Positions 293 to 42,392 of a stretch of DNA of 64,000 bases are shown piece by piece; the first letter of the stretch is position 1; each line of letters opens with the position of its first letter. Made by a program: the position numbers and the translations under genes. Origin of the DNA: Eledone cirrhosa (taxonomy: Eukaryota). Below the pieces are notes generated by a model that ran no database searches, was not told the origin of the DNA, and worked only from the letters and a program-made list of their open reading frames with translations. The stretch spans positions 9,238,001 through 9,302,000 of the forward strand of contig OZ024750.1 in the NCBI GenBank assembly GCA_964016885.1, given 5' to 3'.

Positions 293-347
293 ACTGCCTG
301 AAGAGGTCACAGCCAAAGATGGCTGTCACTGAAATATATATAGCAGT
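293..347 (+). ncRNA. Type I hammerhead ribozyme motif
   Basis: ACUGC-CUGAAGA-GGUcACAGCCA(aaga)UGGCUGUcACU-GAAA-UAUAUA-UA/GCAGU; all core nucleotides present; predicted cleavage after 342. Confidence 0.8.
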
Positions 348-479
348 AATAAACGAAGCTAAATTTTAATCATTTGACTTTTATTTAACTTTATTTTTTA
401 TATATATATATATATATATCCGTCGAAACGGTTTGAGCTCTGCCGTCGGGGTCTTGAACATTTTCCTATATATATATAT

Positions 480-681
480 AACGAAGGAAATGTGGTAAAG
501 AACCAAACCAGGTGGACCATAACGCACCAAAGAACTCAATACTTAGAGTAGTAGAGTGGATAATAGGAACGAGTAGGACCCCGATGGCTGAGCTCAAGCC
601 GTTTCGACGGCTAATTCTGGAGTCCAGAATTAGCCGTCGAAACGGCTTGAGCTCAGCCGTCGGGGTCCTACTCGTTCCTAT
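480..681. mobile_element. Palindromic family A element (palindrome 563-681 plus tail); half copy at 420-467
   Basis: Inverted arms around centre 622; in (TA)n; GAAACGGC...GCCGUC resembles a hammerhead 3' half. Confidence 0.75.
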
Positions 682-710
682 ATATATATATATATTGTTT
701 ATATTTCCAG

Positions 711-871
711 ATGTATACTGACTGTAGCTGTCTAAATGTTGGCTCCACAGTTAGGTCTGGTTACTGTGATAATAACTGTGGTCAGAAGGTTATCTATTTT
801 TCAACTTTTCTTACCCTGTCGGCATTGTTTGGCACCATGAAAATTGTACCATGTTCCATAGCATTTATAAG
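711..871 (+). CDS. SLCO: SLCO paralog 1 internal exon (end of Kazal-like loop, TM10)
   Basis: ttccag|ATGTATACTGAC...ATAAG|gtgatt; 161 bp, phase 0 to 2; homologous to 22329-22483. Confidence 0.88.
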
Positions 872-3178
872 GTGATTTTTATTTTTCAAATTCGATCTTT
901 AAAATAGTATTTTGAAATATTATTTAACAATCAATATTATTAAATAATATTTCAAAATATTAAAGTCAAAGTTAACCTCAAATCCCGCCGAGGTTAACTT
1001 TGCCTTTCATCCTTGCGGGGTCGATAAAACAAAGTACCAGTAATACACTGGGATAATTGCTGCCTTGTGCCAAAAGTAGAAACCATTATTTAATAATCAA
1101 TATGCTGAGTTCAAATCCCGCCGAGGTTAACTTTGTCTTTCATCCTTACGGGGTCGATAAAATAAAGTACCAGTAATACACTGGAGTAATTGCTGGCCTT
1201 GTGCCAAAAGTAGAAACCATTATTTAATAATCAATATGCTGAGTTCAAATCCCGCCGAGGTTAACTTTGTCTTTCATCCTTACGGGGTCGATAAAATAAA
1301 GTACCAGTAATACACTGAGATAATTGCTGCCTTGTGCCAAAAGTAGAAACCATTATTTAATAATCAATATGCTGAGTTCAAATCCCACCGAGGTTAACTT
1401 TGCCTTTCATCCTTGCGGGGGTCGATAAAATGAATTACCAGTAATGTACTGGGGTCGATTTAATTGACTTTCCTCGCTCCCAAAATGTTTGGCCTTGTGT
1501 CTAAATCAGAAACCAATATTTATTACTTTTATATTTTCTTTTATTGAACAGAATGGTTGACACCAGAGATAAAAGCCTGGTTATAGGACTTTCGTCATTT
1601 TTGAGTTCTTTATTGGGTAAGTTAATATGAATTTCTTTACCATTTCCTAAAGATCCATCGTAAATGTTATTTCTGATTAAATATATGTATAAATACTTTC
1701 GGGTTTCAAAAATAATAGAGGAGAGGGTGGGGTAAGCGTGGGGGGGGGGGGGGGCATTTGCTTAAATTCTTATAAGCGGTGACGTGAGGGGTCCGTAGTC
1801 CGTAACTGTACGTTTGTAAATATGGGATTTCTTATAATGTTCTTTTTTTTTTTTTCATATATAATGTTTTTTAATGTAAAATAAAATTCTTATTAGATTC
1901 TCCAGCTGCTGTATCGATATGAATCACTTACAATAAAATTTCGCCGGAGATAGATTAACAAAATTTAATGGGTGGAGGGGGATAAAAGCGGTGGAGGGTT
2001 AGAAAAAAATCTGAAAAATTAATAAGCGGGGGTGGGGTCGTGACGATTATTCAAGACCTGAGAGTCCATGGATAATTCCATTTTTATGTCAACTGTTTTG
2101 TCAACCGCATGTTATTCTTATAACATGCGGTTCAATTGTTACATATACTTCGATGTCTTTCATTCCATAACTTAATGTAAGAGAAAGCATTCAGTCCCCA
2201 CTGGCTAGCCGCAGGTGTGAGCTTCGCGAGATGGAATGGCTCTTCCAGCGCATCTCCCTTACTATCCTCCGGGGAAACGCCTTCTCCATTCTGTCCGGGG
2301 CTGTGGGGAGGCCAGCACGTAGGACCCCATTTGTTCACCATATAGAGAGATAAGGAGGGCGAGAGAGATGGAGGTGATGACAGTGGGAGTTCGGCTCTTC
2401 CGTGTTCCGACCTGGTGTGCACCGCCAGTTGTCCGTAGGGAGATAGTGGTTTGTACTTAGCGAAGGTTTTTAAAACCTTGTGTTTGTGATTCCTGTACGT
2501 TTTATTATGTTGTGGGATTAACTTTTCCTTTCATCCTTACGGAGTCGATAAAATAAAGTACCAGTAATACACTGGGATAATTGCTGGCCTTGTGCTAAAA
2601 GTAGAAACAATTATTATATGTTGACTTCATCTACAATGTGTTTTAATTATAAAGAATAGTCTTCTGCCACTGCCTGACCATAAATGCATCACTATACAGC
2701 TAAATATATATATATATATATATATGGTAAGTTATATTTAAATTGTTGGGTTACAACCAGTAAATATTTATAACTGATATAAAAGCACTCGACAAGTATT
2801 TGGAGTATATTTACGATATTAAATAAATGGAAACTATATTTATAAAACCATATTTATTTCATTATATATATTTCAGGGATATCATATTAACAATATGCTA
2901 TGCCTTCCTCAGACAAAATACAATATAGACAGTTTTATAGATAAATAGATTTGACATACCGTTCAACATCGACTTGTATTTGAAAAGTTGATTTGGCAAA
3001 TCAACTTTTCAAATACAAGTCGATGTTGAACGGTATGTCAAATCTATTTATCTATAAAACTGTCTATATTGTATTTTGTCTGAGGAAGGCATAGCATATT
3101 GTTAATATGATATCCCTGAAATATATATAATGAAATAAATATGGTTTTATAAATATAGTTTCCATTTATTTAATATCG

Positions 3179-3210
<32 letters not shown>

Positions 3211-4574
3211 GAGAGGTTATATTTAATTTGTTGGGATTCAACAAGCTTAAACATTTTTATAACTGATATAAAGCACTCAACAGATTAGTGGAGTAAATAT
3301 ACAATATATTAAATGGAAACTATATTTATAAAACCATATTTATTTTATTATACATATTTCAAGGGCCACCAAGGCAAATTATGGTGCGCTTTCATCAGAT
3401 AAAATACAATACAGATTAGTTTTATAAATAAATATTGACATACCCTGAAAAAAGACAACCTTAACGGTTGGAGCTTCCTGGAAGCTCCAACCGTTAAGGT
3501 TGTCTTTTATAAATATAGTTTCCATTTGTTAATATATTGTATATATATATATATATATATTCTTACTGATTAGAAGCAAGAAATTGTTGCCCCACTTTAA
3601 ATAGACTCTAAAGAGGAATCTGTTTTTATCAACTCTACTTCGTGTGTCATTTGTCATTTTCGTAAATATCAATTGTAATCTATCTGTATATCCTAAGTTT
3701 CGAACAAACGAAAATCATTTATATAAAAGGATAAACAGAAGAAAAAAAATTAATAGTAAAATGAACGGATATATTCACAAGTACAGTCAGTCACAATTTG
3801 ACACAAGGAAAACTACCAATCTCTCTCTCTATCTATCTATCTATCTATCTGACCTGTGGGGCTATGTAGAACGACTATTGTCGCGGGTGGGACCAATCCA
3901 GTTGACCACCGAGTCCATTGTCATGATCAAACCGCCACCCTCCTTCAAAAACGAAGGAGAGGCGGTTTTCCTTTGTGTGATAGCTATGGCGAAAGAGGTT
4001 GTATGGTGGACAAGTTAAAAGGGCTGAGGTCAGACACCTTTCTCTCCGGCCAACAACTGATTCTTTTTTTCAAATACCACTTTGGAAGAAGAATCAGGAT
4101 GGAGAGAGAGGTGCTGTACCCCAGCAAGTTTTATGAAAGGTGGGTGAAAGTGGCGAGAATGGCCCGAGTGAATGGGCCTTCTCTCTATATCAGCCTGTAG
4201 GTTGAGGAAAAGGAGGAGGAGAGGAAAGGAGTACAAGCTCTTCGTACTCCTGGAGATGAGGGTTGCACATTTTTTTTCGGGGGTATGTGTTACCCATATA
4301 AACTGTCTCCCTCTATTGGGGAAAATCGACTAACTTTTTAAATTGCATTTGTGATAACATTTTACACGTTTTTATTGTATGTAAACTTCCCCCTTTGTAT
4401 TTGTCCCCTTCTTTTGTGCCCCTGTGGCTAATAAAGAAATATATCTATCTATCTATATATATATATCTCACTCTCTCTTTCTTTCTTTCTCTCTCCTACT
4501 CTCTCTCTCTCTCTCTTTCTTTCTCTCTCCTACTCTCTCTCTCTCTTTCTCTCTCTTTTTCTCTCTCTTTTTTT

Positions 4575-4605
<31 letters not shown>

Positions 4606-5043
4606 CACTCTCTCTCTCTCTCTCGTTCATTACCTGAGGTTTTCGGGATCCTCAGGTGGGACGACGAAGGCGAGCCAATTGGTTAGGACACTTACGCAGT
4701 GACAAAGATATAGAAGTCACATGACATGGCAATAAATTTCCCCAAATGTCTTTACCATATTTCTTCTTTTCTAGGTTGGACGTTCGGCCCTATAATCTTT
4801 GGAAAGATGATTGATACAACGTGTTTAATTTGGTCTTCTTCATCAACGACATTAAAGGGAGGCTCGTGTGTCTTTTATGACACCCGTCGAATGAGAAACA
4901 TGAATTTCTTAGTCAGTGTAGGCATGGGCATTTTTTGTTGCATCTTAATGATAATTGCTATATTTACATATAATAAGAAAGAAAAGAAGAAGAAACATCA
5001 AGTGGTAAACACTGTATACCAAAAGACTACTATTCCAAAATGA
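711..5043 (+). CDS. SLCO: SLCO/OATP organic anion transporter paralog 1, 3' part only (exons 711-871, 1552-1616, 4775-5043); upstream exons lie outside the window
   Basis: Three AG/GT-bounded exons splice in frame: MYTDCSCLNVGSTVRSGYCDNNCGQK...FGTMKIVPCSIAFIR / MVDTRDKSLVIGLSSFLSSLLG / WTFGPIIFGKMIDTTCLIWSS...GSCVFYD...stop. This matches the OATP post-Kazal region and TM10-12 (GPxIFGxxIDxxCLxW...C..YD). Exon phases, and the 65-bp exon size, are the same as in paralog 2. Confidence 0.92.
970..1516 (+). mobile_element. Tandem array of four 5'-truncated copies of the main tRNA-derived SINE (period about 134 bp)
   Basis: Repeated GTTCAAATCCCGCCGAGGTTAACTTTG.CTTTCATCCTT.CGGGGTCGATAAAA...GTACCAG...GTAGAAAC. 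Confidence 0.85.
1552..1616 (+). CDS. SLCO: SLCO paralog 1 penultimate exon
   Basis: aacag|AATGGTTGAC...TTATTGG|gtaag; 65 bp, RDKSLVIG motif; homologous to 23986-24050. Confidence 0.88.
2201..2490 (+). mobile_element. CRE-clade non-LTR retrotransposon 3' fragment
   Basis: Translates LASRRCELREMEWLFQRISLTILRGNAFSIL, the QRxSxxIxRGNA C-terminal motif of CRE restriction-like endonuclease elements. Confidence 0.72.
2851..2925 (-). ncRNA. Type I hammerhead ribozyme motif (mirror arm)
   Basis: Reverse complement of 3067-3141. Confidence 0.76.
3067..3141 (+). ncRNA. Type I hammerhead ribozyme motif
   Basis: UAUUgUAUUUUGU-CUGAGGA-AGGc...hairpin...cCCU-GAAA-UAUAUA-UA/AUGAAAUAAAUA; predicted cleavage after 3129. 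Confidence 0.78.
3211..3541. mobile_element. Related fold-back element with an internally deleted right arm (central palindrome about 3450-3508)
   Basis: Homologous to 2727-3180 and 26196-26460; bounded by (TA)n. Confidence 0.7.
3337..3411 (-). ncRNA. Type I hammerhead ribozyme motif
   Basis: UAUUUUAU-CUGAUGA-AAGcGCACCA...UGGUGgCcCUU-GAAA-UAUGUA-UA/AUAAAAUA. Confidence 0.78.
3851..4439 (+). mobile_element. L1/Tx1-clade LINE 3' fragment (ORF2 C-terminus and 3' UTR with AATAAA) within (TATC)n
   Basis: Frameshifted DLWGYVERLL...AMAKEVVWWT / LFFKYHFGRRIRMERE...FYERW resembles the Tx1/L1 ORF2 end; 3' UTR tail repeated at 20990-21038. Confidence 0.6.
4775..5043 (+). CDS. SLCO: SLCO paralog 1 last coding exon (TM11-12, C-terminus)
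   Basis: ttctag|GTTGGACG...; GPIIFGKMIDTTCLIW; TGA at 5041-5043. Confidence 0.92.
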
Positions 5044-5058
5044 AACCAGAGACTAATA

Positions 5059-5091
<33 letters not shown>

Positions 5092-5092
<1 letters not shown>

Positions 5093-5391
5093 TATATGAA
5101 GTATTACCGTAGGAAGGGTAAAGAAAAAGAGAGTGCTCTATGTATGCTACAGAGCTATTTAATTATGTAATAAACAACATACGACAATTATTCTATTTAC
5201 CAAAGGTTTCACAAAGACAGACGAGCTCAACAGAAACGTCTGAAATCAGTCATAAAAATTTAATATATTATTAAAAATTTAAATTTAATAAATTTTTATT
5301 CTGATGAGCAACTTCAGACGTCTCTGTTGAGCTCGTCTGTCTTCGTGAAACCTTTGGTAAATGGAATAATTGTCTTATGTTGTTTATTACA

Positions 5392-5397
<6 letters not shown>
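5092..5397. mobile_element. Fold-back element (arms about 5160-5245 and 5314-5397, tail on the left) between (TA)n tracts, just 3' of the SLCO paralog 1 stop codon
   Basis: Imperfect inverted arms; hammerhead motif spanning the spacer and right arm. Confidence 0.7.
5294..5366 (+). ncRNA. Type I hammerhead ribozyme motif
   Basis: UUUUAUU-CUGAUGA-GC...CAGACG/CGUCUG...GU-GAAA-CC(UUU)GG-UA/AAUGGAA; GUA cleavage triplet after 5359; base of stem II is weak. Confidence 0.68.
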
Positions 5398-5439
<42 letters not shown>

Positions 5440-5590
5440 CATGTAGAAATGTGTGAATGTGACAGATCGATCCCTATTTACAAAACTGAAATATGTAAAC
5501 TTGGTTACCATTTCAGTCTCATCAATGGTTTGCCGGTGTTTCAGTTTATATATATACATATATATACATATATATACATACATATATATA

Positions 5591-5628
<38 letters not shown>

Positions 5629-5754
5629 GTATGTGTAAAGTCACTCTACATAGGAAATTTTTAAGTTTCCATATTTATTTATTTTGAATAAATTGTTTCT
5701 TATGAAACATAATTCCTTTTTTTTTTTTATGTATCGCGACTTTTCGGCCACTCT

Positions 5755-5843
5755 ATACATGTGTGCATGTGTGTATATATATGCATGTGTGTGTGTATAT
5801 ATATATACATATGTATGTATGTATATATATATATGTATGAATG

Positions 5844-5877
<34 letters not shown>

Positions 5878-5975
5878 CATATGTATGTATATATATATAT
5901 GTATGAATGTATATATATATATATGTGTGTGTGTGTGTGCATATGTATGTATGTATATATATATATGTATGAATG

Positions 5976-6013
<38 letters not shown>

Positions 6014-6049
6014 CATATGTATGTATGTATATATATATATGTATGAATG

Positions 6050-6083
<34 letters not shown>

Positions 6084-6119
6084 CATATGTATGTATGTAT
6101 ATATATATATGTATGAATG

Positions 6120-6155
<36 letters not shown>

Positions 6156-6189
6156 CATATGTATGTATGTATATATATATGTATGAATG

Positions 6190-6220
<31 letters not shown>

Positions 6221-6246
6221 GTGTGTGTGTGCATATATATGTGTGT
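5755..6246. repeat. Compound (TA)/(TG) microsatellite with a higher-order unit
   Basis: Repeated GCATATGTATGTATG(TA)nTGTATGAATG(TA)n(TG)n. Confidence 0.9.
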
Positions 6247-6585
6247 AACTTATAAGGATTACATAACTTTTTCTATATAAAAAATACTATATATTTAAAG
6301 TCCATGAAATCTGAATTCAGCGTCTATTTTTTTATTATTTTTATTAAAACAATGACTCAATCTTGATTTATATTGTTTCATACTATTTGTAGAATTGTCC
6401 AGATACTTAGCATTTTCTTTTAGGTATGAAGTTGTATAATTATGAGCCTGTTGATATGACATATATAAACTGTAAGGTTTTTGTAGGTTACGAATGTATT
6501 TTTATTTTCTAAATAAGCATACGAAATAGAGCGTGGATTATAAGCAATACTACAGTACATGGTGGTATATTATCTTATTAGAAAT

Positions 6586-7240
6586 ATAATTGTTTCTACT
6601 TTTGGCACAAGGCCAGCAATTACGCCAGTGCATTACTGGTATTTTATTTTATCGACCCCATAAGGATGAAAGTCAAAGTTAACCTCGGCGGAATTTGAAA
6701 TCAGAACGTAAAGGGCCATAACTCTATGCTACGAAGCATGGTGTCTGACGCTCTACTGATACTGCCAATCCACCGCCCTAGTTAGATGAAATAATAGAAA
6801 TATTTCACTCGTGTGGCTTTTCAATTTATTTCATTTAAAATTTTTTTTTTATTGTAAACAAGGAAGATTTGTTTTTTACGATTAACAGCTTCAGAGTCTC
6901 GTCTTAATCAACCAACAGGCTAGAAATAACAACCAAATCTCCCACGTCTCATGGCGTGAGCGACCCCTCTAACTCATGCAAGCATGGAAAAATAGACGTT
7001 AAATGATTATGATATATATACTGCTAATCATCTTATACTTCCTAAGATAATCGTTTCTACTTTTGGCACAAGGCCAGCAATTATCCCAGTGCATTACTGG
7101 TACTTTATTTTATCGACCCTGTAAGGATGAAAGGCAAAGTTAATACGGCGGGTTTTGAACTCCGACTGCAAAGAGCCATAACTCTATGCTGCAAAACATG
7201 GTGTCTGACGCTCTACCGATTCTGCTTATCCACCGCCCTA
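6586..7240 (-). mobile_element. Two full-length tRNA-derived SINE copies (6586-6780, 7048-7240)
   Basis: Head with A box TGGCAGTATCGGTAGAG-like and B box GTTCAAATCC-like sequence; conserved central GCCTTTCATCC...GGGGTCGATAAAATAAAGTACC domain; AT-rich tail. Confidence 0.85.
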
Positions 7241-7629
7241 GAAATATAATGAAACAGTCAATGATTCTGGTGAGAAACGAATGTCGAACGTTTGTAGTTT
7301 ATGGCGATCTCAGTAAATAGGGAAAGAACTTCTCTCTCTCCTCAAAATGTGTGTATGTATGTGTGTGTGGGTGGGTGTGTTTATCAACAATAGTAAATGA
7401 TAAATTTAAACTACCTAATCAAGGGAGATTATAAATGCCAATGAAGAAGATAAGTAAGGTAATTACACGGAACCAGTTGTAAGGGAAATAACCCAATATC
7501 GTATTTGTTATGACTTTTGAACATTCTGAAATTGGAGAGGAAGGCAAACATTGACATACGATGATTCATATCTGCTTCTTATACACGTGTGCACGGGTAC
7601 ACGGTCAATGCAGACAGAGAAACAAACAT

Positions 7630-7666
<37 letters not shown>

Positions 7667-7713
7667 AGTAGAAGGGATATTTAATTTGTTTAATTGTATA
7701 TATATATATATAT

Positions 7714-9660: not shown

Positions 9661-9667
9661 TTTTCCT

Positions 9668-10562: not shown

Positions 10563-11845
10563 ACAGATCTATAAGGAGCTGAAATACGTTTCACTCTGTG
10601 TCTTGTAGAGACAGATCTATACGGAGCTGAAATGCGTTTCACTCTGTGTCTTGTAGAGACAGATCTATAAGGAGCTGAAATACGTTTCACTCTGTGTCTT
10701 GTAGAGACAGATCTATAAGGAGCTGAAATACGTTTCACTCTGTCTTGTAGAGACAGATCTATAAGGAGCTGAAATACGTTTCACTCTGTGTCTTGTAGAG
10801 ACGGATCTATACGGAGCTGAAATACGTTTCACTCTGTGTCTTGTAGAGACGGATCTATACGGAGCTGAAATGCGTTTCACTCTGTGTCTTGTAGAGACAG
10901 ATCTATAAGGAGCTGAAATACGTTTCACTCTGTGTCTTGTAGAGACAGATCTATAAGGAGCTGAAATACGTTTCACTCTGTGTCTTGTAGAGACAGATCT
11001 ATAAGGAGCTGAAATACGTTTCACTCTGTGTCTTGTAGAGACAGATCTATAAGGAGCTGAAATACGTTTCACTCTGTGTCTTGTAGAGACAGATCTATAA
11101 GGAGCTGAAATACGTTTCACTCTGTGTCTTGTAGAGACAGATCTATAAGGAGCTGAAATACGTTTCACTCTGTGTCTTGTAGAGACAGATCTATACGGAG
11201 CTGAAATACGTTTCACTCTGTGTCTTGTAGAGACAGATCTATAAGGAGCTGAAATACGTTTCACTCTGTGTCTTGTAGAGACAGATCTATAAGGAGCTGA
11301 AATACGTTTCACTCTGTGTCTTGTAGAGACAGATCTATAAGGAGCTGAAATACGTTTCACTCTGTGTCTTGTAGAGACAGATCTATAAGGAGCTGAAATA
11401 CGTTTCACTCTGTGTCTTGTAGAGACAGATCTATAAGGAGCTGAAATACGTTTCACTCTGTGTCTTGTAGAGACAGATCTATAAGGAGCTGAAATACGTT
11501 TCACTCTGTGTCTTGTAGAGACAGATCTATAAGGAGCTGAAATACGTTTCACTCTGTGTCTTGTAGAGACAGATCTATAAGGAGCTGAAATACGTTTCAC
11601 TCTGTGTCTTGTAGAGACAGATCTATAAGGAGCTGAAATACGTTTCACTCTGTGTCTTGTAGAGACAGATCTATAAGGAGCTGAAATACGTTTCACTCTG
11701 TGTCTTGTAGAGACAGATCTATAAGGAGCTGAAATACGTTTCACTCTGTGTCTTGTAGAGACAGATCTATACGGAGCTGAAATACGTTTCACTCTGTGTC
11801 TTGTAGAGACAGATCTATACGGAGCTGAAATACGTTTCACTCTGA
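10563..11845. repeat. 48-bp minisatellite, about 27 copies
   Basis: Unit ACAGATCTATAAGGAGCTGAAATACGTTTCACTCTGTGTCTTGTAGAG; one unit has a 2-bp deletion near 10740. Confidence 0.97.
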
Positions 11846-13685: not shown

Positions 13686-13744
13686 CACGCACACACACGC
13701 ACACATAGATACACACAGATACACACACAGATACACATAGATAT

Positions 13745-13775
<31 letters not shown>

Positions 13776-15057: not shown

Positions 15058-15278
15058 AATGTTACCTAGGTCAACAATGTCTTTCCTCCTTCCAAGATCG
15101 ATAAAATATATTAAAATACTCTCTTCCCTTTAAATGTGTGGTCATTTAAGAAATGATCACTACTCTTATAGTTTATATAATTTCCAATACGAAGACGCTT
15201 TCTTTTTCTTGAAGTATGGCCTTGACACAGTATCTTATATGATTTGTTTCTTCTCTTTCTTTGCAGAATTTATCCCAT

Positions 15279-15843
15279 ATGGAGGAAGAATATAGTACAG
15301 AAGATGCTGCTAAAGACGATCAAAATTGTAATTCAGAGCCACTAAATTCAAGCCACTCCGAAACACTGCTTTCAGAATCAAATACATTATCTACTACTTG
15401 CAACATTGTAGCTCACAAGTCAGTATCTACTGTTACACATCCAGATATCGGTGATATTGATCCTGATTTTCGATGTGGAATCGGAACTTTCCATCCAAAG
15501 TACTTACAATATTTTAGAAATATCTACTCCTTCATATTTTTCTATGGTGGTCCTGCTCTAGTCACATCAACACTTTCAATTTATATCGTATCTCAAATTA
15601 CAGCAATTGAACGACAGTTCGGTTTCTCCAGTGCCAATAGTGGCTTTCTTCTTGCTTGCAATGATATAGGCTTTCTTAGCACAGTTCTGCTCGTCAGTTA
15701 CTGTTTTCGCAATAAAAATATTCCACGTGTTTTAGCTGGTGGTACATTTGTTTTTGGTATCTCTGGTCTTTTATGTGCTTCGCCATTTTTATTGGATTCT
15801 TCAGCAATAACAGATGAACATCTTCAACATAAACCCAACAATG
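15279..15843 (+). CDS. SLCO: SLCO paralog 2 coding exon 1 (acceptor at 15266 implies an upstream 5' UTR exon)
   Basis: ttgcag|aatttatcccatATGGAGGAA; MEEEY...CGIGTFHPKYLQ...IERQFGFSSANSGFL; donor AATG|gtatc. Confidence 0.9.
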
Positions 15844-17000
15844 GTATCAAATCTACGTTATTGTTGTTATATTATTATTGTTACTACTACTACTACAGTA
15901 TCGGTAGAGGGTTGGACGCCATGCCTTTCAGCATAGAGTTACGCCCCTTTTCGTTCTGAGTTCAAATCCCGCCGAGGTTAACTTTGCCTTTTATCTTTAT
16001 GGGGTCGGTAAAATAAAGTACCAGTCACGCACTGGGGTCGACTTAATCGACTTTCCTCTCCTCCCAAATTGCTGGTCTTGTGCCTAATATAAGAAGTGGA
16101 TTGGCAATATCGGTAGAGGGTCGGACGCCACGCTTTCCAGCATAGTTACGTCCCTTTACGATCTGAGTTCAAATCCCGCCGAGGTTGACTTTGCCTTTCA
16201 TCCTTACGGGGTCGATAAAATAAAGTACCAGTAATGCATTGTGTAATTGCTGGCCATGTGCCTAAAGTAGAAACAATTATTATTAATGTTGTTGTTGTTG
16301 TTACTTTTATATCTGTCATTGATGTTATTTAACCAGAAAATTTGCCCTAATGAACATCAAGCCGCTACATGCAGCCTCAGATATTCAGAAAATATCGTTA
16401 AAGGGTCCTTGCTGTTCCCAGTAGGCATGCCTTCATTATTATTATTATTATGACAGTATCGGTAAGGGTCGGACGCCATGCTTTGACGTATAGAGTTACG
16501 GCCCTTGCCATTCTGAGTTCAAATCCCGCCGAGGTTAACTTTGCCTTTCATCCTTACGGGGTCGATAAAATAAAGTACCAGTAATACACTGGGATAATTG
16601 CTGGCCTTGTGCCAAAAGTAGAAACAATTATTATGACAGAACCAATAGAGAGTTGAATAAATGCTTTGTAGTTTCCGTTCCGATATTTGTTGAGTTTAAA
16701 TCCTTCTTGAGTCAAACCTGATTTCTGTCTTTGACAAAATAATCAACTACTGAGGTAGATATAATCAACTGTTTCCTCCCTCAAAGGTAGATATAATCAA
16801 CTGTTTCCTCCCTCAAAGGTAGATATAATCAACTGTTTCCTCCCTCAAAGGTAGATATAATCAACTGTTTCCTCCCTCAAAGGTAGATATAATCAACTGT
16901 TTCCTCCCTCAAAATGCCTGGTCTTGTATTTATGCAAGAAAACAATATATTCTTGTTTTACTGACGTATGTATATTTTTGACTTCTTTTGCTGTTTTTAA

Positions 17001-17352: not shown

Positions 17353-17705
17353 TATAAATATTAATAAAATAGATGTTCTTTTGATCAATTACATTTTATT
17401 ATACATATTTCGGATGTACAACAGTACGTCCTCATCAGACAAAATATGAGATGTTAAATGATTAAGATTAATCAAGGTAGTGATTAACCTAAGAAAATTT
17501 AACATATATACCCTAATTATGAGAAAACGATGAGAACGTACTGTTGTACATCCGAAATATGTATAATAAAATGTAATTGATCAAAAGAACATCTATTTTA
17601 TTATTTATATTTTAATATTAACTCCGGAAAATTATTTTTCGTAGAGTGCTTCCAATCTACTGTAAAACTCATTCTTTGACATACTCATGGAATATTGTTT
17701 AACAC

Positions 17706-20700: not shown

Positions 20701-23700
20701 TAAAAGGATTTTAATTGCTAGAAGGGGTCTAAATTATTTAACAACTTGGGCGGTGGATTGGCAGTATCGGTAGAGGGTCGGACGCCATTCTTTGCAGCAT
20801 AGTTACGTCCCTTTACGGACTGAGTTCAAATGCCGCCAAAGTTAACTTTGCCTTTCATCCTTACGGGGTCGATAAAATAAAGTACCAGTAATGTACTGGG
20901 TTATTGCTGGCCTTGTGCCAAAAGTAGAAACAATTATTTAAGAACTTTCACACACCGAGTTTCCTGCATCTGTTTGTTTATCTATCTATCCCCCTTTGTA
21001 TTTGTCCCCTTCTTTTGTGCCCCTGTGGCTAATAAACATATATCACCTTCTAATGTACAAATGTGTGTGTCTCTGTGTGTGTGTATGTATGTATGTGTGT
21101 GTGTGTTTGTGTATCTATCTTTCTATGTAACTCCGTCTGCCTATCTATCTTTATCTATCTATCTATCTATCTATCTAATCTATCTATCCATCTCTCTCTC
21201 CATCTATAGATCTATCTATCTATCTATCTGTCTGTCTATTTATTTACCAATTTCAGGAGCGACCAACTTGTTTGCGTTATCTGGTGGGACCCTGATTGGT
21301 GGTTTACTTACATCAAAAGCAAAGATGTCCGCGAGAGGGTGTTTGATTTTCATAACCGTCAGTTATTTTGGTGTTGCTATTCTTGGCATGTTGAATTTGA
21401 TAACTGGTTGTGACAGTATCCCAATGGTTGGACCACATAACATTCCAAACAGGTAGCTCATACACATACATACGTACAGATAAGGCGGTGGCTTGGCAGC
21501 ATCGGTAGAGCGTCAGACACCATGCTTTGCAGCATAGTTAAGGCTCTTTACGTTCTGCTTTAAAATCCCGCCGAAGTTAACTTTGCCTTTCATCTTTACA
21601 GGGTCAATAAAATAAAGTACCAGTAATGCACTGGGGTAATTGCTGGCCTATGTTTTGTTAAAGGTTTATAATTAGGTAAAAACTTTACGCTTACCTTGAA
21701 TATCATTTACTTCTATAGAGCCACATTTCCTAATGGTACCTTAATTCCTGACTGTAAAGAAGCCTGTTCTTGTAAAGATACGAAATATCTGCCAATTTGT
21801 AGTGGAAGTGGGATTAATTACTTTTCACCTTGTTATGCTGGATGTCACAGTAAAAATGAAACTGTAAGTATATATATATATATATATATATGTCTTTTAG
21901 TGATGATATCTTAGTATCAGCTTTTTTTTGTCCCACTTCTAGAGCCAGCACCTGGGTATTTAGTGCCCTACAATGTGTACCGCCTTCTCCAAGACCTGCA
22001 CCCATTCCATTCAAATATAATAATATCATGTAGTTTGGTAAACTAACGAACTTGGTTTTTGACACTTCTTTCTCTGATCACCCTAAGGAAATTACTAATC
22101 CTGCCTTTTCGATTACACAGTTCACATTCACCCATGCCAATTCCTGTGACAGGTCATAACATCTTATGACCCACCCCGCCGTTTTGAATATCCCCACAAC
22201 GTTGCCATGGCAGCAAAGATATGTACCTGCTACTTGTTGGTTAAACATCTTTTTTTCAGTTAAATATCAACGTAGCCAGTAAACTTTCTTTACGTTAATC
22301 GAGTACTTTCTATATTTCCTCTTTCTAGACATATAACGATTGCAGGTGCATTTTTAATGCAACAAATGCAGTCCCTGAGATCTGTGAAACCGGCTGCAAT
22401 GTCATCTATTACGCAATATTGATCAGTCTGAAATCATTCTTTGGAACCATGAAGATAGTACCATACTATATCAGTGTCATTCGGTAAACATTATAATTTT
22501 GTTTTTGATTCTATTTTTTAAGGCAAAACCTTCTATTTATTAAACAAAAGTTATATACAATGATAGAAATATTAAAGAAGGATGACAACAAAATTAAGTA
22601 ATGAAAAACAGGGAGAAGGGATAAAGAAGGGCAGATCTGGCTGTAAAGGAAAGGACTATCGACAGTCGATCGACTTTCATCAAATCGGACCGAGGAAATG
22701 TTTCCATTGGTCTTTCCAGTTGCTAATACTATCTATCGGTCGCAACTCCAGGTAGGAGCAACGTGAAATAAAGTCTTGCTCAAGGACATAATGTATCACC
22801 CGCTCCGGGAATTGAACTCACAACCTCATAATTGCGAATCTAATTCTCTTACCACTCAGCCACGTCCTGAGAAAGGATTATAAATGCCATAAATGAGAAG
22901 AAAATGAGGGAAAGGAGCAAGGACTATAGGTGAAGGGCATAGACTATTAGGCATCGGAAGAAAGAGGGGGGGGGTGACAGAATCTACACCTTGGTTGGGG
23001 CCGTGTTTCGGTTGCATACCGCAAACAAAATTGCAAAGGCATTTCCGCGGACAATGGCCAGCGACACCCACTGCAACAGCCACCCCACCTCATGGGGATT
23101 CAATGTAACATTTCCAATAAAATAAAATTTATAGAAGCAATGTTTAAGAAATAATTGTTAGTGTACTATCAATAATTGTTTCTACTTTTGGCACAAGGCC
23201 AGCAATTACCCAGTACATTACTGGTACTTCATTTTATCGACCCCCGAAAGGATGAAAGGCAAAGTTAACCTCGGCGGGATTTGAACTCAGTCCGTAAAGG
23301 GACGTAACTATGCTGGAAAGCATGGCGTCCGACCCTCTACCGATACTGCCAATCCACCGCCCTTGGTGTATTATTTAGAAATTATTGTTGATGGTGTACT
23401 ATCAATAATTGTTTCTACTTTAGGCACAAGGCCAGCAATTACCAGTGCATTACTGGTACTTTATTTTATCGATCCCGTAAGGATGAAAGGCAAAGTCAAC
23501 CTCGGCGGGATTTGAACTCAGATCGTAAAGGGACGTAACTATGCTGGAAAGCATGGCGTCCGACCCTCTACCGTGAACTATCAATAATAATTTCTAAATA
23601 GGTTTCCAGAGACTTTTGTATGGGAATCTATTAACATATCTCCCGGCGTCGAAGAGCTACTTTTTTTCCTAAAATTAGTCTAAAAAATCTATGTGCCCTG

Positions 23701-26013: not shown

Positions 26014-26104
26014 TATTTTATGCGCATTTCAAAAACAAATATCATCATGGGGTGATATTTGCGTTTTCATCAGATACTACAGTACGTCCTCATCAGATAA
26101 AATA
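26014..26104 (-). ncRNA. Chimeric/degenerate hammerhead motif (complete core plus a second 5' half)
   Basis: CUGAUGA-AAAcGCAAAUAUCA...UGAUAUUUGUuUUU-GAAA-UGCGCA-UA, stem I disrupted; preceded on the minus strand by UAUUUUAU-CUGAUGAGGACGUAC of the 17392 type. Confidence 0.55.
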
Positions 26105-26270
26105 AGATGATGCATGACATACCCTGACAAATTCTTTGATTTATTCATTGAACCTTGTTTAACCTTTAAATATATATATATATATATATATATATCCGCG
26201 AGCTTCCAACAGAAATGGTCGCGTTCTTTAAGGGTATGTCAATATTTATTTATAAAACTGATCTATATTA

Positions 26271-26335
26271 TATTTTATCTGATGAAAGCGCACCATAATT
26301 TGACTTGGTGTCCTTGAAATATGTATAATGAAATA
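26271..26335 (+). ncRNA. Type I hammerhead ribozyme motif within element 26196-26460
   Basis: UAUUUUAU-CUGAUGA-AAGcGCACCA...UGGUGUcCUU-GAAA-UAUGUA-UA/AUGAAAUA. Confidence 0.8.
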
Positions 26336-29534: not shown

Positions 29535-29625
<91 letters not shown>

Positions 29626-29666
29626 CAAAATATTAATAAATGAAAAATATTCTCATAATCAAAATA

Positions 29667-29733
29667 TATATTTTATTATACATATTTCAAAGGTACAATG
29701 GTGTTTAAGTACGTTTTCATCAGATAAAATATA
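29667..29733 (-). ncRNA. Type I hammerhead ribozyme motif
   Basis: UAUAUUUUAU-CUGAUGA-AAAcGUAC...GUACcUUU-GAAA-UAUGUA-UA/AUAAAAUAUA (10-bp stem I). Confidence 0.8.
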
Positions 29734-31224: not shown

Positions 31225-31304
<80 letters not shown>

Positions 31305-31305
<1 letters not shown>

Positions 31306-35208: not shown

Positions 35209-35433
35209 TTAACCCTTTACCATTTAAACCAGCTGTATCTGGCCAGAATTCTCTCACTTCTTTCTGTTCAAACTTGCCATAACTAGCCCCTCATACTGAT
35301 GTTAAGTTATTGTTCTCAAAATAAATAACATCAAAATCTCATAGATTCAATATTATGTTTGATAATTATGTCAGATAAAGCCTTTACTGCGAAAATAATA
35401 CTATATAGAGTAATGTAAAGGCTAAAGGGTTAA
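35209..35433. mobile_element. piggyBac-like MITE (second, left-eroded copy at 34381-34599)
   Basis: TTAA|CCCTTTA...TAAAGGG|TTAA: terminal inverted repeats with TTAA on both sides; two homologous copies. Confidence 0.68.
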
Positions 35434-35703
35434 GAAGTAATGCTCCATCAATGCTAAAGGGTTAAGAAGTAAGGCTCCATCAATGCTAAAGGGTTAAGAA
35501 GTAAGGCTCCATCAATGCTAAAGGGTTAAGAAGTAATGTAAAGGCTAAAGGGTTAAGAAGTAAGGCTCCATCAATGCTAAAGGGTTAAGAAGTAAGGCTC
35601 CATCAATGCTAAAGGGTTAAGAAGTAAGGCTCCATCAATGCTAAAGGGTTAAGAAGTAAGGCTCCATCAAGGCTAAAGGGTTAAGAAGTAAGGCTCCATC
35701 AAT
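35421..35703. repeat. 32-bp tandem repeat containing the MITE right terminus
   Basis: Unit GCTAAAGGGTTAAGAAGTAAGGCTCCATCAAT, about 9 copies. Confidence 0.9.
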
Positions 35704-37953
35704 ATCGAAATTTTGAGTTTGTTTGAAATAACATTACTTTAATACCAAAAAATATATTTGTTTTTTTTTCTATATGTATATGTAATTTTATGGAAGCGTG
35801 TGACTTAGTGGTTAGAGAGATGGATTCACAGTCATGAGGTTGTGAGTTCAATTCTCAGACCGGGTGATATTTTGTGTCCTTGAGCAAGACACTTTATTTC
35901 ACATTGCTCTTTCTGCCAGGTGTTGCAACTGGTAGATAGTATCAGCAATGGAAACATTGTTTCCTTGGTCTGGTTTGATGAGGTCCACCCCACTTGGCAA
36001 ATGAATGAGGTCTGGGATATTGTTGATCGATTTTCTTCCTCTTTCATATGTAATTTAAGTATTTTTGTTGTGGTTCAACGTTGAATAATTTGAATTGCTA
36101 AATAAATTATTGCAATTAATTTCTATTAGCATGAGGTGATAATAGTATTTGAGAATGTTAAAGCACTAAACTGAACTTGTGTACTAGTAACGCTAGAGTA
36201 TCAAATAATATTTATGAAATGGTCCAGTAATTAAACAATTTAGATTACAGGCTGGAAGCAATTTCATTTGGAGTGTTAAAAAACAAAAACACATACACAA
36301 ACGATATTTCTTTAATCTTTATTGCAAAATCTTATTACAGAATTTTCTATAAAGGAATAAATGTCAACAATAAACTAAATTATATTTCAATGATGTATAA
36401 ATTTGTCAAAATGGTTGCCCGTTACCCAAGGAGATGGAGGAGGGAAGGGTCCTAATTTATGACTCTATCAATCCACTTGCTGTTTGTCCATTTAGCTTGC
36501 TGTCTGTCCATTTAGTCCTGGAGCAGAGCAGGAGAGCCATTTTATATTTGAAAGCCACATCAAATTAAATGTAATTTAATAAGGCGACATTGGATATATG
36601 GGGAAATGTAATTAAATTTATTGTAAAAATGTAAATATAAAAATCTGTATGAAATAAATATTCAAATTAATCTTTTTTAAAATCCCAAAGATTTCTCTGT
36701 AAGAGGCCCAGTAAAATAGACAGAACTAAATAGTTTACATTTATTGCAGGGGTTTACCATTTATACAAGATTTATCAGCAATTATTCCTAATTTATTATG
36801 GTTCTCATTAGAATATCTGTTAGTTTCAATAGAGGGTTTATATTGTAACAGATGAGAGGGGGAGGGGGTAGAGTCCTGAAACACTCCTTCCAGTGGGTCC
36901 TGGGTCCTGTCAGAAGCAACTGTCTCCAACTGATCCAGCTGGATTCCCAAGCGAGACCAGCTAAGCTCATGGATGCTATAAATTTACTCGCATATCAATT
37001 TACCCATTATCCTCTTCAATAATTTGACTTCATATAAAAATATACTTGATCTATTTACTCACAATATATAGGATTTAAGCAAATTCTAAAGTTTTACTAA
37101 ATTTTTGAAACAAGTGATTTATAAAAATCTCTATGCAGGTCTTTATGCTATACACTTGCCATTATGAAGGATATTAGAAATAATTGTTTCTACTTTTGGT
37201 ACAAGGCCAGCAATTATCCCAGTGCATTACTGGTACTTTATTTTGTCAATTCCCTAAGGATGAAAGGCAAAATTAACCTCGGCAGGGAAGAAAACAAAAC
37301 TGAGCAAGGATTTTTATAAAAATATAAATTTTGTTTTGAAAAATAATTCTAACACTTATTTTTTCCCCTTAGTTTCGGTGAGAAACATATGAGAAAGAGA
37401 GAATGGTGGGGAGAAAAGAAAGTATCATTAATTAGTTACAGAGGGTCGGACGCCATGCTTCGCAGCAAAGAGTTACATCCCTTTATGGTCTGAGTTCAAA
37501 TCCCGCCGAGGTTAACTTTGCCTTTCATCTTTATGGGGGTCGATAAAATAAAGTACCAGTAATACACTAGGATAATTTCTGGCCTTGTGCCAAAAGTAGA
37601 AACAATTAATTAGAGTTACAAATGGTTGAAAAAAGAGAAAAGGATAAATGAAGAATTTGTTGATTGCAAATAGTTTCTTTGGTGGAAGAGTGGTTAATGC
37701 TGAAAGTCAGTTGACCAGAATAATAAAGAGACAAAATAATGGTTGAGGAATTAGTCCAGTTTTCTGCACCAACTGACATATGTGAAGATAAAATACTGCT
37801 GAGAATGTTGGAATCTAGAAATTATTGGAACAGCTTGAATTTCCCATTTCTAAAGTGCTAACAAATGTTTGGTAGCTTAGCATTCTCTGGCTTGCTGTGA
37901 ATAACTTTTACCAATAATAATCTATATTATAATAAGAGTGCTGTCTGTCTGTC

Positions 37954-40900
37954 TGTCCATTCCCCCATCCCTCTGTCCATTCGTCCATCCCTCTGTCCAT
38001 TCGTCCATTCCTCTGTCCATTCCTCCATCCCTCCGTCCATTCCTCCATCCCTCTGTCCATTCGTCCATTCCTCTGTCCATTCGTCCATTCCTCTGTCCAT
38101 TCGTCCATCCCTCCGTCCATTCGTCCATCCCTCCGTCCATTCGTCCATCCCTCCGTCCATTCGTCCATCCCTCTGTCCATTCCTCCATCCCTCTGTCCAT
38201 TCGTCCATCCCTCCGTCCATTCGTCCATCCCTCTGTCCATTCGTCCATCCCTCCGTCCATTCCTCCATCCCTCCGTCCATTCCTCTGTCCATTCCTCCAT
38301 CCCTCTGTCCATTCGTCCATCCATTCGTCCATCCCTCCGTCCATTCCTCCATCCCTCCGTCCATTCCTCTGTCCATTCGTCCATCCCTCCGTCCATTCCT
38401 CCATCCCTCCGTCCATTCCTCTGTCCATTCGTCCATCCCTCTGTCCATTCCTCCATCCCTCCGTCCCTTCGTCCGTTCCTCTGTCCATTCGTCCATCCCT
38501 CCGTCCATTCGTCCATCCCTCCGTCCATTCGTCCATCCCTCCGTCCATTCGTCCATCCCTCCGTCCATTCCTCCATCCCTCCGTCCATTCCTCCATCCCT
38601 CCGTCCATTCCTCCATCCCTCCGTCCCTTCGTCCGTTCCTCTGTCCATTCGTCCATTCCTCTGTCCATTCGTCCATCCCTCCGTCCATTCCTCCATCCCT
38701 CCGTCCCTTCGTCCATCCCTCCGTCCATTCCTCCATCCCTCCGTCCCTTCGTCCGTTCCTCTGTCCATTCGTCCATTCCTCTGTCCATTCGTCCATCCCT
38801 CCGTCCATTCGTCCATCCCTCCGTCCATTCGTCCATCCCTCCGTCCATTCCTCCATCCCTCCGTCCCTTCGTCCGTTCCTCTGTCCATTCGTCCATTCCT
38901 CTGTCCATTCGTCCATTCCTCTGTCCATTCCTCCATCCCTCCGTCCCTTCGTCCGTTCCTCTGTCCATTCGTCCATTCCTCCGTCCATTCGTCCATCCCT
39001 CCGTCCATTCGTCCATCCCTCCGTCCATTCCTCCATCCCTCCGTCCCTTCGTCCGTTCCTCTGTCCATTCGTCCATTCCTCTGTCCATTCGTCCATTCCT
39101 CTGTCCATTCCTCCATCCCTCCGTCCCTTCGTCCGTTCCTCTGTCCATTCGTCCATTCCTCTGTCCATTCCTCCATCCCTCCGTCCATTCCTCCATCCCT
39201 CCGTCCATTCGTCCATCCCTCCATCCATTCGTCCGTCCCTCCGTCCCTTCCTCCGTCCCTTCGTCCATTCCTCCGTCCATTCCTCCATCCCTCTGTCCAT
39301 TCCTCCATCCCTCCGTCCATTCCTCCATCCCTCCGTCCATTCCTCCATCCCTCCGTCCATTCGTCCATCCCTCCGTCCATTCCTCCATCCCTCCGTCCAT
39401 TCCTCCATCCCTCCGTCCATTCCTCCATCCCTCTGTCCATTCCTCCATCCCTTCGTCCATTCCTCCGTCCATTCCTCCATCCCTCCGTCCATTCCTCCAT
39501 CCCTCCGTCCATTCCTCCATCCCTCTGTCCATTCCTCCATCCCTCCGTCCATTCCTCCATCCCTCTGTCCATTCGTCCATTCCTCCGTCCATTCCTCCAT
39601 CCCTCTGTCCATTCCTCCATCCCTCCGTCCATTCCTCCATCCCTCTGTCCATTCGTCCATTCCTCCGTCCATTCCTCCATCCCTCTGTCCATTCGTCCAT
39701 CCCTCCGTCCATTCCTCCATCCCTCTGTCCATTCCTCCATCCCTCCGTCCATTCCTCCATCCCTCCGTCCATTCCTCCATCCCTCTGTCCATTCGTCCAT
39801 TCCTCCGTCCATTCCTCCATCCCTCTGTCCATTCCTCCATCCCTCCGTCCATTCCTCCATCCCTCTGTCCATTCGTCCATCCCTCCGCCCCTTCGTCCAT
39901 TCCTCTGTCCATTCCTCCATCCCTCTGTCCATTCGTCCATTCCTCCGTCCATTCCTCCATCCCTCTGTCCATTCCTCCATCCCTCCGTCCATTCCTCCAT
40001 CCCTCTGTCCATTCGTCCATCCCTCCGTCCCTTCGTCCATCCCTCCGTCCATTCCTCCATCCCTCTGTCCATTCGTCCATTCCTCCGTCCATTCCTCCAT
40101 CCCTCTGTCCATTCCTCCATCCCTCCGTCCATTCGTCCATCCCTCTGTCCATTCGTCCATCCCTCCGTCCATTCCTCCATCCCTCTGTCCATTCCTCCAT
40201 CCCTCCGTCCATTCGTCCATCCCTCCGTCCATTCGTCCATCCCTCTGTCCATTCCTCCATCCCTCTGTCCATTCCTCCATCCCTCCGTCCATTCGTCCAT
40301 CCCTCCGTCCATTCGTCCATCCCTCCGTCCATTCGTCCATCCCTCCGTCCATTCCTCCATCCCTCCGTCCATTCGTCCATCCCTCCGTCCATTCCTCCAT
40401 CCCTCCGTCCATTCGTCCATCCCTCCGTCCATTCGTCCATCCCTCCGTCCATTCCTCCATCCCTCCGTCCATTCGTCCATCCCTCCGTCCATTCGTCCAT
40501 CCCTCCGTCCATTCGTCCATCCCTCCGTCCATTCGTCCATCCCTCCGTCCATTCGTCCATCCCTCCGTCCATTCGTCCATCCCTCCGTCCATTCCTCCAT
40601 CCCTCCGTCCATTCGTCCATCCCTCCGTCCATTCCTCCATCCCTCCGTCCATTCGTCCATCCCTCCGTCCATTCGTCCATCCCTCCGTCCATTCGTCCAT
40701 CCCTCCGTCCATTCGTCCATCCCTCCGTCCATTCCTCCATCCCTCCGTCCATTCGTCCATCCCTCCGTCCATTCGTCCATCCCTCCGTCCATTCGTCCAT
40801 CCCTCCGTCCATTCGTCCATCCCTCCGTCCATTCGTCCATCCCTCCGTCCATTCGTCCATCCCTCCGTCCATTCCTCCATCCCTCCGTCCATTCGTCCAT

Positions 40901-41415
40901 CCCTCCGTCCATTCGTCCATCCCTCCGTCCATTCGTCCATCCCTCCGTCCATTCCTCCATCCCTCCGTCCATTCCTCCATCCCTCCGTCCATTCGTCCAT
41001 CCCTCCGTCCATTCCTCCATCCCTCCGTCCATTCCTCCATCCCTCCGTCCATTCGTCCATCCCTCCGTCCATTCCTCCATCCCTCCGTCCATTCGTCCAT
41101 CCCTCCGTCCATTCGTCCATCCCTCCGTCCATTCGTCCATCCCTCCGTCCATTCGTCCATCCCTCCGTCCATTCGTCCATCCCTCCGTCCATTCGTCCAT
41201 CCCTCCGTCCATTCCTCCATCCCTCCGTCCATTCCTCCATCCCTCTGTCCATTCCTCCATCCCTCCGTCCATTCGTCCATCCCTCCGTCCATTCGTCCAT
41301 CCCTCTGTCCATTCCTCCATCCCTCTGTCCATTCCTCCATTCCTCCGTCCATTCGTCCATCCCTCTGTCCATTCCTCCATCCCTCCGTCCATTCCTCCGT
41401 CCATTTGTCCATCCC
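37954..41415. repeat. About 3.5-kb pyrimidine-rich 20-bp satellite
   Basis: Unit CCATCCCTC(C/T)GTCCATTC(G/C)T with variants; explains the four ORFs over 1100 aa. Confidence 0.97.
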
Positions 41416-41889
41416 TCTCTCTCCATCACACTCTCTTTATATAGAGAGGAGGAATACCAAGTGAGAGATATGTTAATAAAGAGATAAAATAAAGGGAATG
41501 GCATATGTTTTCAAGGTGACAGAAAGAGGTAGATAGAAAGTTATGATGTTGCCCTCATCTATATATATATAGAGAGAGGGGGGGGGGGGTGCCCAGCAAA
41601 AGAGAAAAGGAACGTCATTTGTTTAGAGAGTGTGTGTGTGTGTGTGTGTGTGTGTGATAGAAAGAGTCAGCAGACATCACCCTCATCTGTAGTAATAATT
41701 GTTTCTACTTATGGCACAAGGCCAGCAATTACCCAGTGCATTACTGGTACTTTATTTTATCGACCCCCCCCCCCCCCCCCCCCGTAAGGATGAAAGGCAA
41801 AGTTGACCTCAGTGGGATTAATAATGATTGATTTTTAAATAATACACAACATACATGAAATAGCACTGCAAGGCACTGTATATAAAGAC

Positions 41890-42116
41890 ACCATCATCAC
41901 CATCAGCACCATCATTACCATCACCATCATTACCACCATTACCACCATCATCACCATCATCACCACCATTACCATCACCACCATTACCATCATCATCGCC
42001 ATCATCGCCATCGTCATCGCCATAGTCATCGCCATCATCACCACCATCATCATCATCACCACCACCATTATCACCACCATTATCACCACCATCATCACTA
42101 TCATCATCATCATCAT
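41890..42116. repeat. (CAT/CAC)n trinucleotide repeat (similar tract at 51962-52253)
   Basis: Direct inspection. Confidence 0.9.
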
Positions 42117-42152
42117 TTAATGTCCCACTTTCCCTGCTAACAAGGGTTGGAT

Positions 42153-42189
<37 letters not shown>

Positions 42190-42321
42190 GGAGGTGAGTT
42201 TTATTGTAGTACAATAAAGCAATGCAGATATCGGATAAGAAGCACTCTACAGTTTGTGGGACTGGAGTATGCATAATATAAGATCAAAAGATGATTTTTT
42301 AGCCTTCATATCATGTTCTCC

Positions 42322-42392
42322 TGTTTTATCTGATGAAAACACAAATATTATTATTTGATGATGTTTGTTTTTGAAATGCGCATAATAAAATA
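42322..42392 (+). ncRNA. Type I hammerhead ribozyme motif within fold-back element 42187-42430
   Basis: UGUUUUAU-CUGAUGA-AAAcACAAAUAUUAUUA(uu)UGAUGAUGUUUGUuUUU-GAAA-UGCGCA-UA/AUAAAAUA; palindromic stem III AUGCGCAU. Confidence 0.8.

Follow-up and report, generated by a model that had tools for sequence, protein, structure and literature searches.

A 64,000-nucleotide stretch of the Eledone cirrhosa genome (contig OZ024750.1, positions 9,238,001 to 9,302,000 of the forward strand; hereafter the window) carries hammerhead ribozymes whose stem II opens with three base pairs, is interrupted by an unpaired C at its fourth position (C10.4) and then pairs again. This raises the question of whether the C is a structural feature kept by selection and, if so, what would read it. 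The ribozymes belong to Penelope-like retroelements, and the mismatch is very probably both real and selected. The reading that we favour, with a probability of roughly 0.45, is that C10.4 may be kept as a recognition mark for the element's own reverse transcriptase (RT)-endonuclease protein, as judged from sequence comparison. Hammerheads of Penelope-like elements are poor cutters in vitro, and the single element that has been reconstituted cuts only when protein is present. One unpaired base fixed across a deep lineage, with paired sister lineages, offers a natural one-base comparison, which lets one ask whether these RNAs are tuned for cutting, restraint or protein binding.

A scan of both strands recovered all eight sites of a preliminary description of the window, with the stem II openings and the five closing triplets reported there, together with two inverted duplicates and one chimeric half motif; the sites cited at 3337, 17392, 26014 and 29667 lie on the minus strand. 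The coordinates of the motifs listed below are core-to-H17 spans.

298..342, plus strand: family E hammerhead (GGU-c/c-ACU), C10.4 at 308 and C11.4 at 327; stem I CUGC/GCAG, palindrome UAUAUA, cut triplet AUA
20..64, minus strand: inverted duplicate of the family E hammerhead in the same insertion, C10.4 at 54
3080..3129, plus strand: family A2 hammerhead (AGG-c/c-CCU), C10.4 at 3090
2863..2912, minus strand: inverted duplicate of the family A2 hammerhead
About 2727-3178: two-armed insertion of family A2, flanked on both sides by (TA)n runs
3349..3398, minus strand: family B hammerhead (AAG-c/c-CUU), C10.4 at 3388
17400..17438, minus strand: family D hammerhead, short form (GGA-c/a-UCC), C10.4 at 17428 with A opposite
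17527..17565, plus strand: second arm of the 17400 insertion, degenerate, with C3/U4 of the core gone and the C.A mismatch retained
26019..26073, minus strand: family C-group hammerhead (AAA-c/u-UUU) in which a family D piece takes the place of the native 5' stem I strand
26074..26110, minus strand: family D hammerhead, 5' half only (stem I strand, core and the beginning of stem II), fused to the 26019-26073 motif
26279..26327, plus strand: family B hammerhead (AAG-c/c-CUU), C10.4 at 26289
29677..29723, minus strand: family J hammerhead (AAA-c/c-UUU), C10.4 at 29713
42330..42384, plus strand: family C hammerhead (AAA-c/u-UUU), C10.4 at 42340, palindrome UGCGCA; this arm stops 53 nucleotides (nt) past the cut site at (TA)n
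42185-42296: inverted arm of the family C insertion, with a longer tail to +136

Every window motif has a full hammerhead core, a 6-nt palindrome after GAAA and a UA cut site, and all but the chimera have stem I, a layout that gives type I topology. The core residues C3 U4 G5 A6 N7 G8 A9, G12 A13 A14, A15.1-U16.1 and H17 are present in 10 of 10 window motifs and invariant in the 19 family rows described below. The pattern CTGANGANNNC-gap-GAAATRYRYATA, which has C at stem II position 4, matched 10 times in the window (0.00 in 100 shuffles); with A, G or T at that position it had no match in the 64 kb. Rfam covariance models gave no match at the gathering score in the 64 kb, and none of the 27 matches at E<=10 in positions 1-4000 was to a hammerhead family. 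The motifs occupy short two-armed insertions within (TA)n runs. The segment 26019-26110 (minus strand) is a chimera joined at the core, with a family D 5' half and a family C-group hammerhead, which suggests template switching or recombination between families at the ribozyme.

Pairing around the unpaired C

The 19 family representatives were the best-paired copy of each family, taken from searches that required C. Pair 10.3-11.3 was formed in all 19, as U-A, A-U or G-C, and pair 10.4-11.4 in none; pairs 10.2 and 10.5-10.7 changed on both sides, three to five pair types occurred at each neighbouring position, and C10.4 was the sole invariant column outside the core. Changes on both sides were found in 13 of the 15 named pairs, and 89.5% of cells were paired (26-55% in slid controls), in rows that are related and were picked for good pairing. 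This pairing fits a core ringed by three helices, with stem I open at its end. Across 21 representatives the 5' C was constant, and the base opposite it was C in 16, U in 3 and A in 2. A constant 5' C with a variable 3' partner points to reading of the C rather than to mere looseness.

The first pair is less regular. Among the 21 representatives, 10.1-11.1 was G-C in 3, A-U in 8, G-U in 7, U.U in 2 and A.A in 1, and in related families it is often weak or open (A.C, U.U, A.A). U.U at this pair is known in natural hammerheads (PMC3088659) and in Hydra families (PMC8557442); the missing G10.1-C11.1 therefore marks a variant and does not exclude these motifs from the hammerheads. A register with the extra base that Penelope hammerheads have between A9 and 10.1 fits families A, B, C and J; it was ruled out by D, E and F, which pair only in the register without it. 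A slipped register that bulges C10.4 was favoured by folding in family A only. As a separate observation, a family G subfamily (e.g. G000:C1 4688922-4688985) has TGAC for TGTC, which gives A.A at 10.3 beside C.C in many copies; this subfamily has spread with almost no junction helix.

Closing C10.4 in silico added 3.7-6.7 kcal/mol of stability, and the probability of pair 10.2, below 0.5 in 10 of the 21 native motifs, rose to at least 0.7 in 20 of 21 once the mismatch was closed. By this prediction the three junction pairs are marginal in about half of families. Such values would also be expected if the mismatch were a pure brake, which merely weakens the junction-proximal helix and keeps transcripts uncut long enough for copying, the C itself not being read. 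The predicted loss of stability, the poor first three pairs in about half of families, a 10.1-11.1 pair that is weak or open instead of G-C, and the origin of copies from uncut RNA (below) are all consistent with a brake. Any mismatch would serve this purpose, yet the 5' base was C in all families examined and the 3' base variable, and a C-to-U change, which would preserve the mismatch opposite C or U, was found only in scattered copies. We regard a pure brake as decidedly unlikely.

Position 10.4 is the junction of a canonical 4-base-pair (bp) stem II with its contact loop, and a possible, if doubtful, alternative is that the C is read by RNA only: C10.4, or a non-canonical pair, would dock on stem I or on the dimer partner and speed cleavage, and would replace the loop I-loop II contact absent in long-stem hammerheads. 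Contacts between stems II and I are usual in fast hammerheads (PMC3088659), C10.4 is frequent even when paired (17 of 58 blind-sampled motifs), and U is common 7 nt past the cut (16 of 21 families). The preliminary description had proposed a tertiary contact with stem I or a protein-binding site. A non-canonical contact and a protein site are both retained here as candidate roles; a Watson-Crick contact with stem I or the flanks was sought and not found, since G occurs in at most 11 of the 21 families at any flank position from 30 nt upstream to 40 nt downstream and the loop holds no conserved G either. With no conserved G partner, a Watson-Crick tertiary pair is unlikely. An RNA-only contact is further opposed by stem I, which varies widely between families (4 bp to 8-9 bp), and by metagenome relatives that have long stems I and II without the mismatch.

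Host elements, copy number and ancestry

Longer copies elsewhere in the genome carry the hammerhead 1.0-1.7 kb downstream of open reading frames (ORFs) with a reverse transcriptase and, at the C terminus, a GIY-YIG domain. Together, the RT/GIY-YIG ORF, the hammerhead in a terminal repeat, the tandem and inverted copies and the tail are those of Penelope-like elements. RWK occurs in families E and H, RWI in C, and DKT in C and E; a CxCX5C linker and the endonuclease motifs CxxC and CxH occur in families A, C and E. A (TA)5+ run lies within 260 nt past the cut in 131 of 143 mismatch copies, and tandem spacing is 3.3-4.4 kb, which is the element length, with 3' regions of 1.0-1.7 kb. By sequence, the elements are Penelope-like retroelements with Hydra-type protein motifs, an assignment made by comparing motifs with the descriptions in PMC8557442; the tree described below covered ORFs of this genome and of a metagenome. 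A Neptune/Nematis assignment was dropped, the motifs matching the Hydra clade. Pfam gave no match on five ORF pieces, most homologues carry PF26215, none of 18 protein matches exceeded 38% identity, and no relatives were found among viral contigs.

In four tandem copies (families C, C, E and H) stop codons occur in all three frames between hammerhead and ORF, and the hammerhead is therefore non-coding there; the ORF's first ATG in families C and E lies about 250-280 nt past the core, and the family E core has no ATG. These observations bear on a constraint outside the RNA fold, in which the C would be fixed because it belongs to a codon or, at the DNA level of the terminal repeat, to a promoter or an endonuclease site. 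There is precedent for both forms, in that the Anolis ORF begins inside stem II (PMC11167929) and promoters occur in Penelope terminal repeats (PMC6765202). Nevertheless, given the stop codons and the distant ATG, the free variation of the bases around the C, and the avoidance of G at 11.4, for which a DNA site would not account, such a constraint is highly improbable.

Genomic copies run through the cut site to two fixed ends (in family C at +53 and +136, in E at +56 and +159, in H at +56 and about +176), and the copied RNA was therefore uncut. Mismatch copies that reach (TA)n do so at 40-59 nt past the cut in 75 of 131 cases and at 130-159 nt in 40 of 131. A pattern for truncation of the 5' end at the cut site in family C gave 196 matches, compared with 65 at a control offset, at unequal pattern stringency and with 3-nt deletions making up 14 of the first 100. 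Stem III holds 6-nt RY (purine-pyrimidine) palindromes, with self-duplex energies predicted at -1.8 to -10.5 kcal/mol for seven types. A further hammerhead family (L096:7136-8263+, L092, L057 and L073) has a CTAATTAG palindrome, a long stem II and direct repeats about 560 bp apart, with no ORF between the repeats, resembling a non-LTR (long terminal repeat) retrozyme.

Across the whole 3.0-Gb genome, a broad pattern found C10.4 in 112,104 matches (control 383) and A, G or T at 10.4 in 9,284 (control 4,392). The mismatch thus persists in much larger samples: G stands opposite C10.4 in 742 genome matches (control 95), or 0.7%, and the listed cases are scattered single changes, deletions or unrelated families. 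Among copies with one fixed suffix, C10.4 was lost in 1,370 of 31,093 (4.4%) and the catalytic C3 in 959 of 30,682 (3.1%); hence neither has been lost by any large subfamily of this set. A blind sample of 75 regions (750 kb, structure scan, reversed-sequence control 0) yielded 58 hammerheads, with 18 C.C, 6 C.U, 17 C-G, 13 other pairs and 4 other mismatches at position 4; two of the 13 other-pair motifs come from one repaired family E insertion. As 24 of 58 have C.C or C.U, the mismatch marks a large subset and not all hammerheads of the genome, and these 24 motifs per 750 kb extrapolate to about 96,000 copies genome-wide. Repaired variants present in both insertion arms (L039, L158) were considered as evidence of mobility and rejected, core-dead C3 variants being likewise present in both arms. 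The mismatch copy number (about 112,000 pattern matches) far exceeds the roughly 9,000 hammerhead copies given for Xenopus (PMC4209133), and the Rfam models miss the window copies.

The ancestry of the mismatch was traced on a final tree of 23 ORFs, 10 of 33 rows being omitted as short, long-branch or near-duplicate. All 8 mismatch-linked ORFs form one clade (support 100/98), which a quick tree of the 33 rows also recovers, and the gain of the mismatch is one change in all 200 bootstrap trees. Seven ORFs are linked to their hammerhead directly and one through an inverted arm, and no paired family falls inside the clade among the linked ones. Within the clade, summed branch length is about 3.3 amino-acid substitutions per site, RT identity between mismatch families is 50-68%, and flanks no longer align between families. 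With flanks unalignable and every neighbouring pair type changed, one would expect an unconstrained base to have changed as well.

The preliminary description regarded the mismatch as a selected feature, and this proposal gains from its fixation across so deep a clade while 10.2, 10.3 and 10.5-10.7 covary; on these sequences the mismatch was most likely derived once and has since been kept by selection. The five closing triplets, taken there as independent cases, turn out to be copies of related retroelement families of one clade, with one origin on the tree. The simplest history is likely that G11.4 of an ancestral C-G pair changed once and was then retained. Neutral inheritance, in which the mismatch arose once and was carried along, would agree with the single origin, with a choice of representatives biased to C, and with the finding that hammerhead cleavage is dispensable in vitro for another Penelope element (PMC11167929). 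It is disfavoured, and improbable, in view of the roughly 3.3 substitutions per site within the clade, the unalignable flanks and the variety of pairs, three to five types, at every neighbouring position.

Linked families outside the clade have C-G (a family with a CCGAAGA core), G.U (family V) or A-U (family Z) at position 4; in this genome C-G is found in one lineage among those nearest to the clade, and two lineages near the clade have no readable hammerhead. The metagenome held 34 relatives, and its 14 hammerhead rows in 13 loci, two doubtful L143 rows having been dropped, comprise no mismatch and 11 C-G, many of them near-copies. Published Hydra families likewise show no mismatch in 25 examined by eye (PMC8557442, File S2), with C-G in 15 and many from one species. 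In near-clade lineages (V: L093, L075 and L159; others: L043, L185 and L107) stem II is very long, at about 90-100 nt, or the sequence downstream of the ORF holds no readable hammerhead. Several families with a CCGAAGA or CCGATGA core (U4 to C), intact stems and a CAATTG palindrome were found (L052:6935+, L016, L050, L013, L098, L004, L153, L157 and L102), a family-wide change of a core base; one of them is immediately upstream of a Hydra-type ORF that falls near the mismatch clade in the tree. The L052 ORF was considered as family D and rejected, as it belongs to the paired family with the CCGAAGA core.

Other features of the window are as follows. Exons of an OATP/SLCO organic anion transporter gene lie at 15243-15956 and 20881-21453 (plus strand), with the 17400 insertion between them; one exon matched Pfam PF03137 (OATP) above the cut-off and the second fell just below. 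Tandem arrays occupy 10563-11844 (48-bp unit x 27, 98% match) and 37955-41402 (20-bp unit x 173). A second TA-targeted two-armed repeat, without a standard hammerhead core, lies at 418-680 and also at L052:5780-5980, with blocks CCGTCGAAAC, GAGCTC and GGGGTC. Outside the window, L053:570-2426 (minus strand) contains broken reading frames that we take, from their motifs, to be Helitron-like Rep/helicase.

A candidate role in protein recognition

Recognition of C10.4 by the RT-endonuclease could proceed as follows. The C.C, C.U or C.A 1x1 loop would expose C10.4 and, as folding predicts, loosen the 3-bp helix that props the catalytic core, and the RNA would fold and cut poorly alone. Cutting would then need both dimer formation through the palindromic stem III and protein binding; once bound, the protein would begin to copy the uncut RNA at a site about 55 nt downstream. 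In Anolis, the Penelope hammerhead depends on the element's protein for cleavage, and uncut RNA serves as the template (PMC11167929); the copies described here likewise derive from uncut RNA. We therefore rank a protein-read loop that also restrains unaided folding ahead of, in that order, an RNA-only contact, a pure brake, neutral inheritance and a coding or DNA-level constraint.

An unlikely, more far-reaching version is that the hammerhead is a protein landmark more than a cutter, with the RT reading the unpaired C, holding the ribozyme off and starting to copy about 55 nt downstream. If this were true, a one-base switch, carried by about 110,000 copies and missing from sister lineages, would make the role of the Penelope hammerhead directly testable.

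Several points weigh against protein recognition of a selected, singly acquired C. The invariance of C in 19 of 19 representatives is circular, and covariation is somewhat favoured, because C was required and the best-paired copies were taken. Copy-level counts mirror post-insertion decay, and few families dominate them. Folding was computed with ViennaRNA, which leaves the tertiary core out. The end spacing is not specific, since non-mismatch families also have ends at 40-60 nt beyond the cut (17 of 77). Families D, E2, F, G, I, J, L and M are without a linked ORF, and C-lacking families with the same stem III pattern are unplaced; the mismatch may thus have been lost within the clade or have arisen a second time, family M being similar to the paired V family. 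A link by proximity of the L159 ORF to family E proved false, that ORF belonging to V. Finally, one origin is one event, and a trait of a whole clade cannot be tied to a protein feature by correlation.

Comparison with known systems

The closest resemblance is to the Hydra clade (Craig et al. 2021, PMC8557442), which in the descriptions available shares RW(K/I), DKT, the CxCX5C linker, and CxxC and CxH in a C-terminal GIY-YIG domain, as well as (TA)n targets and inverted 5'-truncated arms with a tail. Its hammerheads are likewise type I with a palindromic stem III, and often have C at stem II position 4. Unlike the elements described here, none of the 25 published families has an internal C.C, C.U or C.A at that position. 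Hydra elements are described, though not diagnosed, as 'generally under 3 kb', compared with 3.3-4.4 kb here, and the present motifs also differ in their 6-nt RY palindrome in stem III and long stem II.

Metazoan Penelope hammerheads (Cervera and de la Pena 2014, PMC4209133) are similarly type I, with an intact core, a long helix II and a place in terminal repeats; they occur as inverted pairs 100-700 bp apart, with a palindromic helix III for dimers and many families per genome. In their consensus an extra base separates A9 from G10.1, and G10.1 pairs with C11.1, whereas the motifs here have no extra base and mostly A-U or G-U. The extracts of that paper describe no conserved helix II mismatch. 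Its 56 examples, inspected by eye, include one sea-urchin C.A and one fluke U.U at position 4, and helix II bulges in D. virilis and Ciona.

In PAc Poseidon of Anolis (Frangieh et al. 2024, PMC11167929), as here, the hammerhead lies upstream of two fixed RT starts that define the tail, and the uncut site is present in genomic copies. That element belongs to a different clade and its ORF starts in stem II, in contrast to the non-coding hammerhead here. Protein-assisted cleavage has been shown for PAc Poseidon, and for the Eledone elements it would follow by analogy. The words 'mismatch' and 'bulge' are absent from the main text of that paper. To the extent of the literature searched, whose coverage left most subscription papers outside, there is no account of a conserved position-4 mismatch, in agreement with the preliminary description, which knew of none.

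Small dimer-cleaving Penelope variants (Lunse, Weinberg and Breaker 2017, summarised in PMC6765202) share the type I fold, the short palindromic stem III and cleavage as dimers. The RNA class and the element class are thus already known, and the position-4 mismatch is a refinement rather than a new system. The preliminary description had suggested a new hammerhead subtype; because known Penelope hammerheads have the same core, type I topology and palindromic stem III, the position-4 mismatch hammerhead is instead a lineage-specific variant, and both the ribozyme and the class of retroelement that carries it are known.

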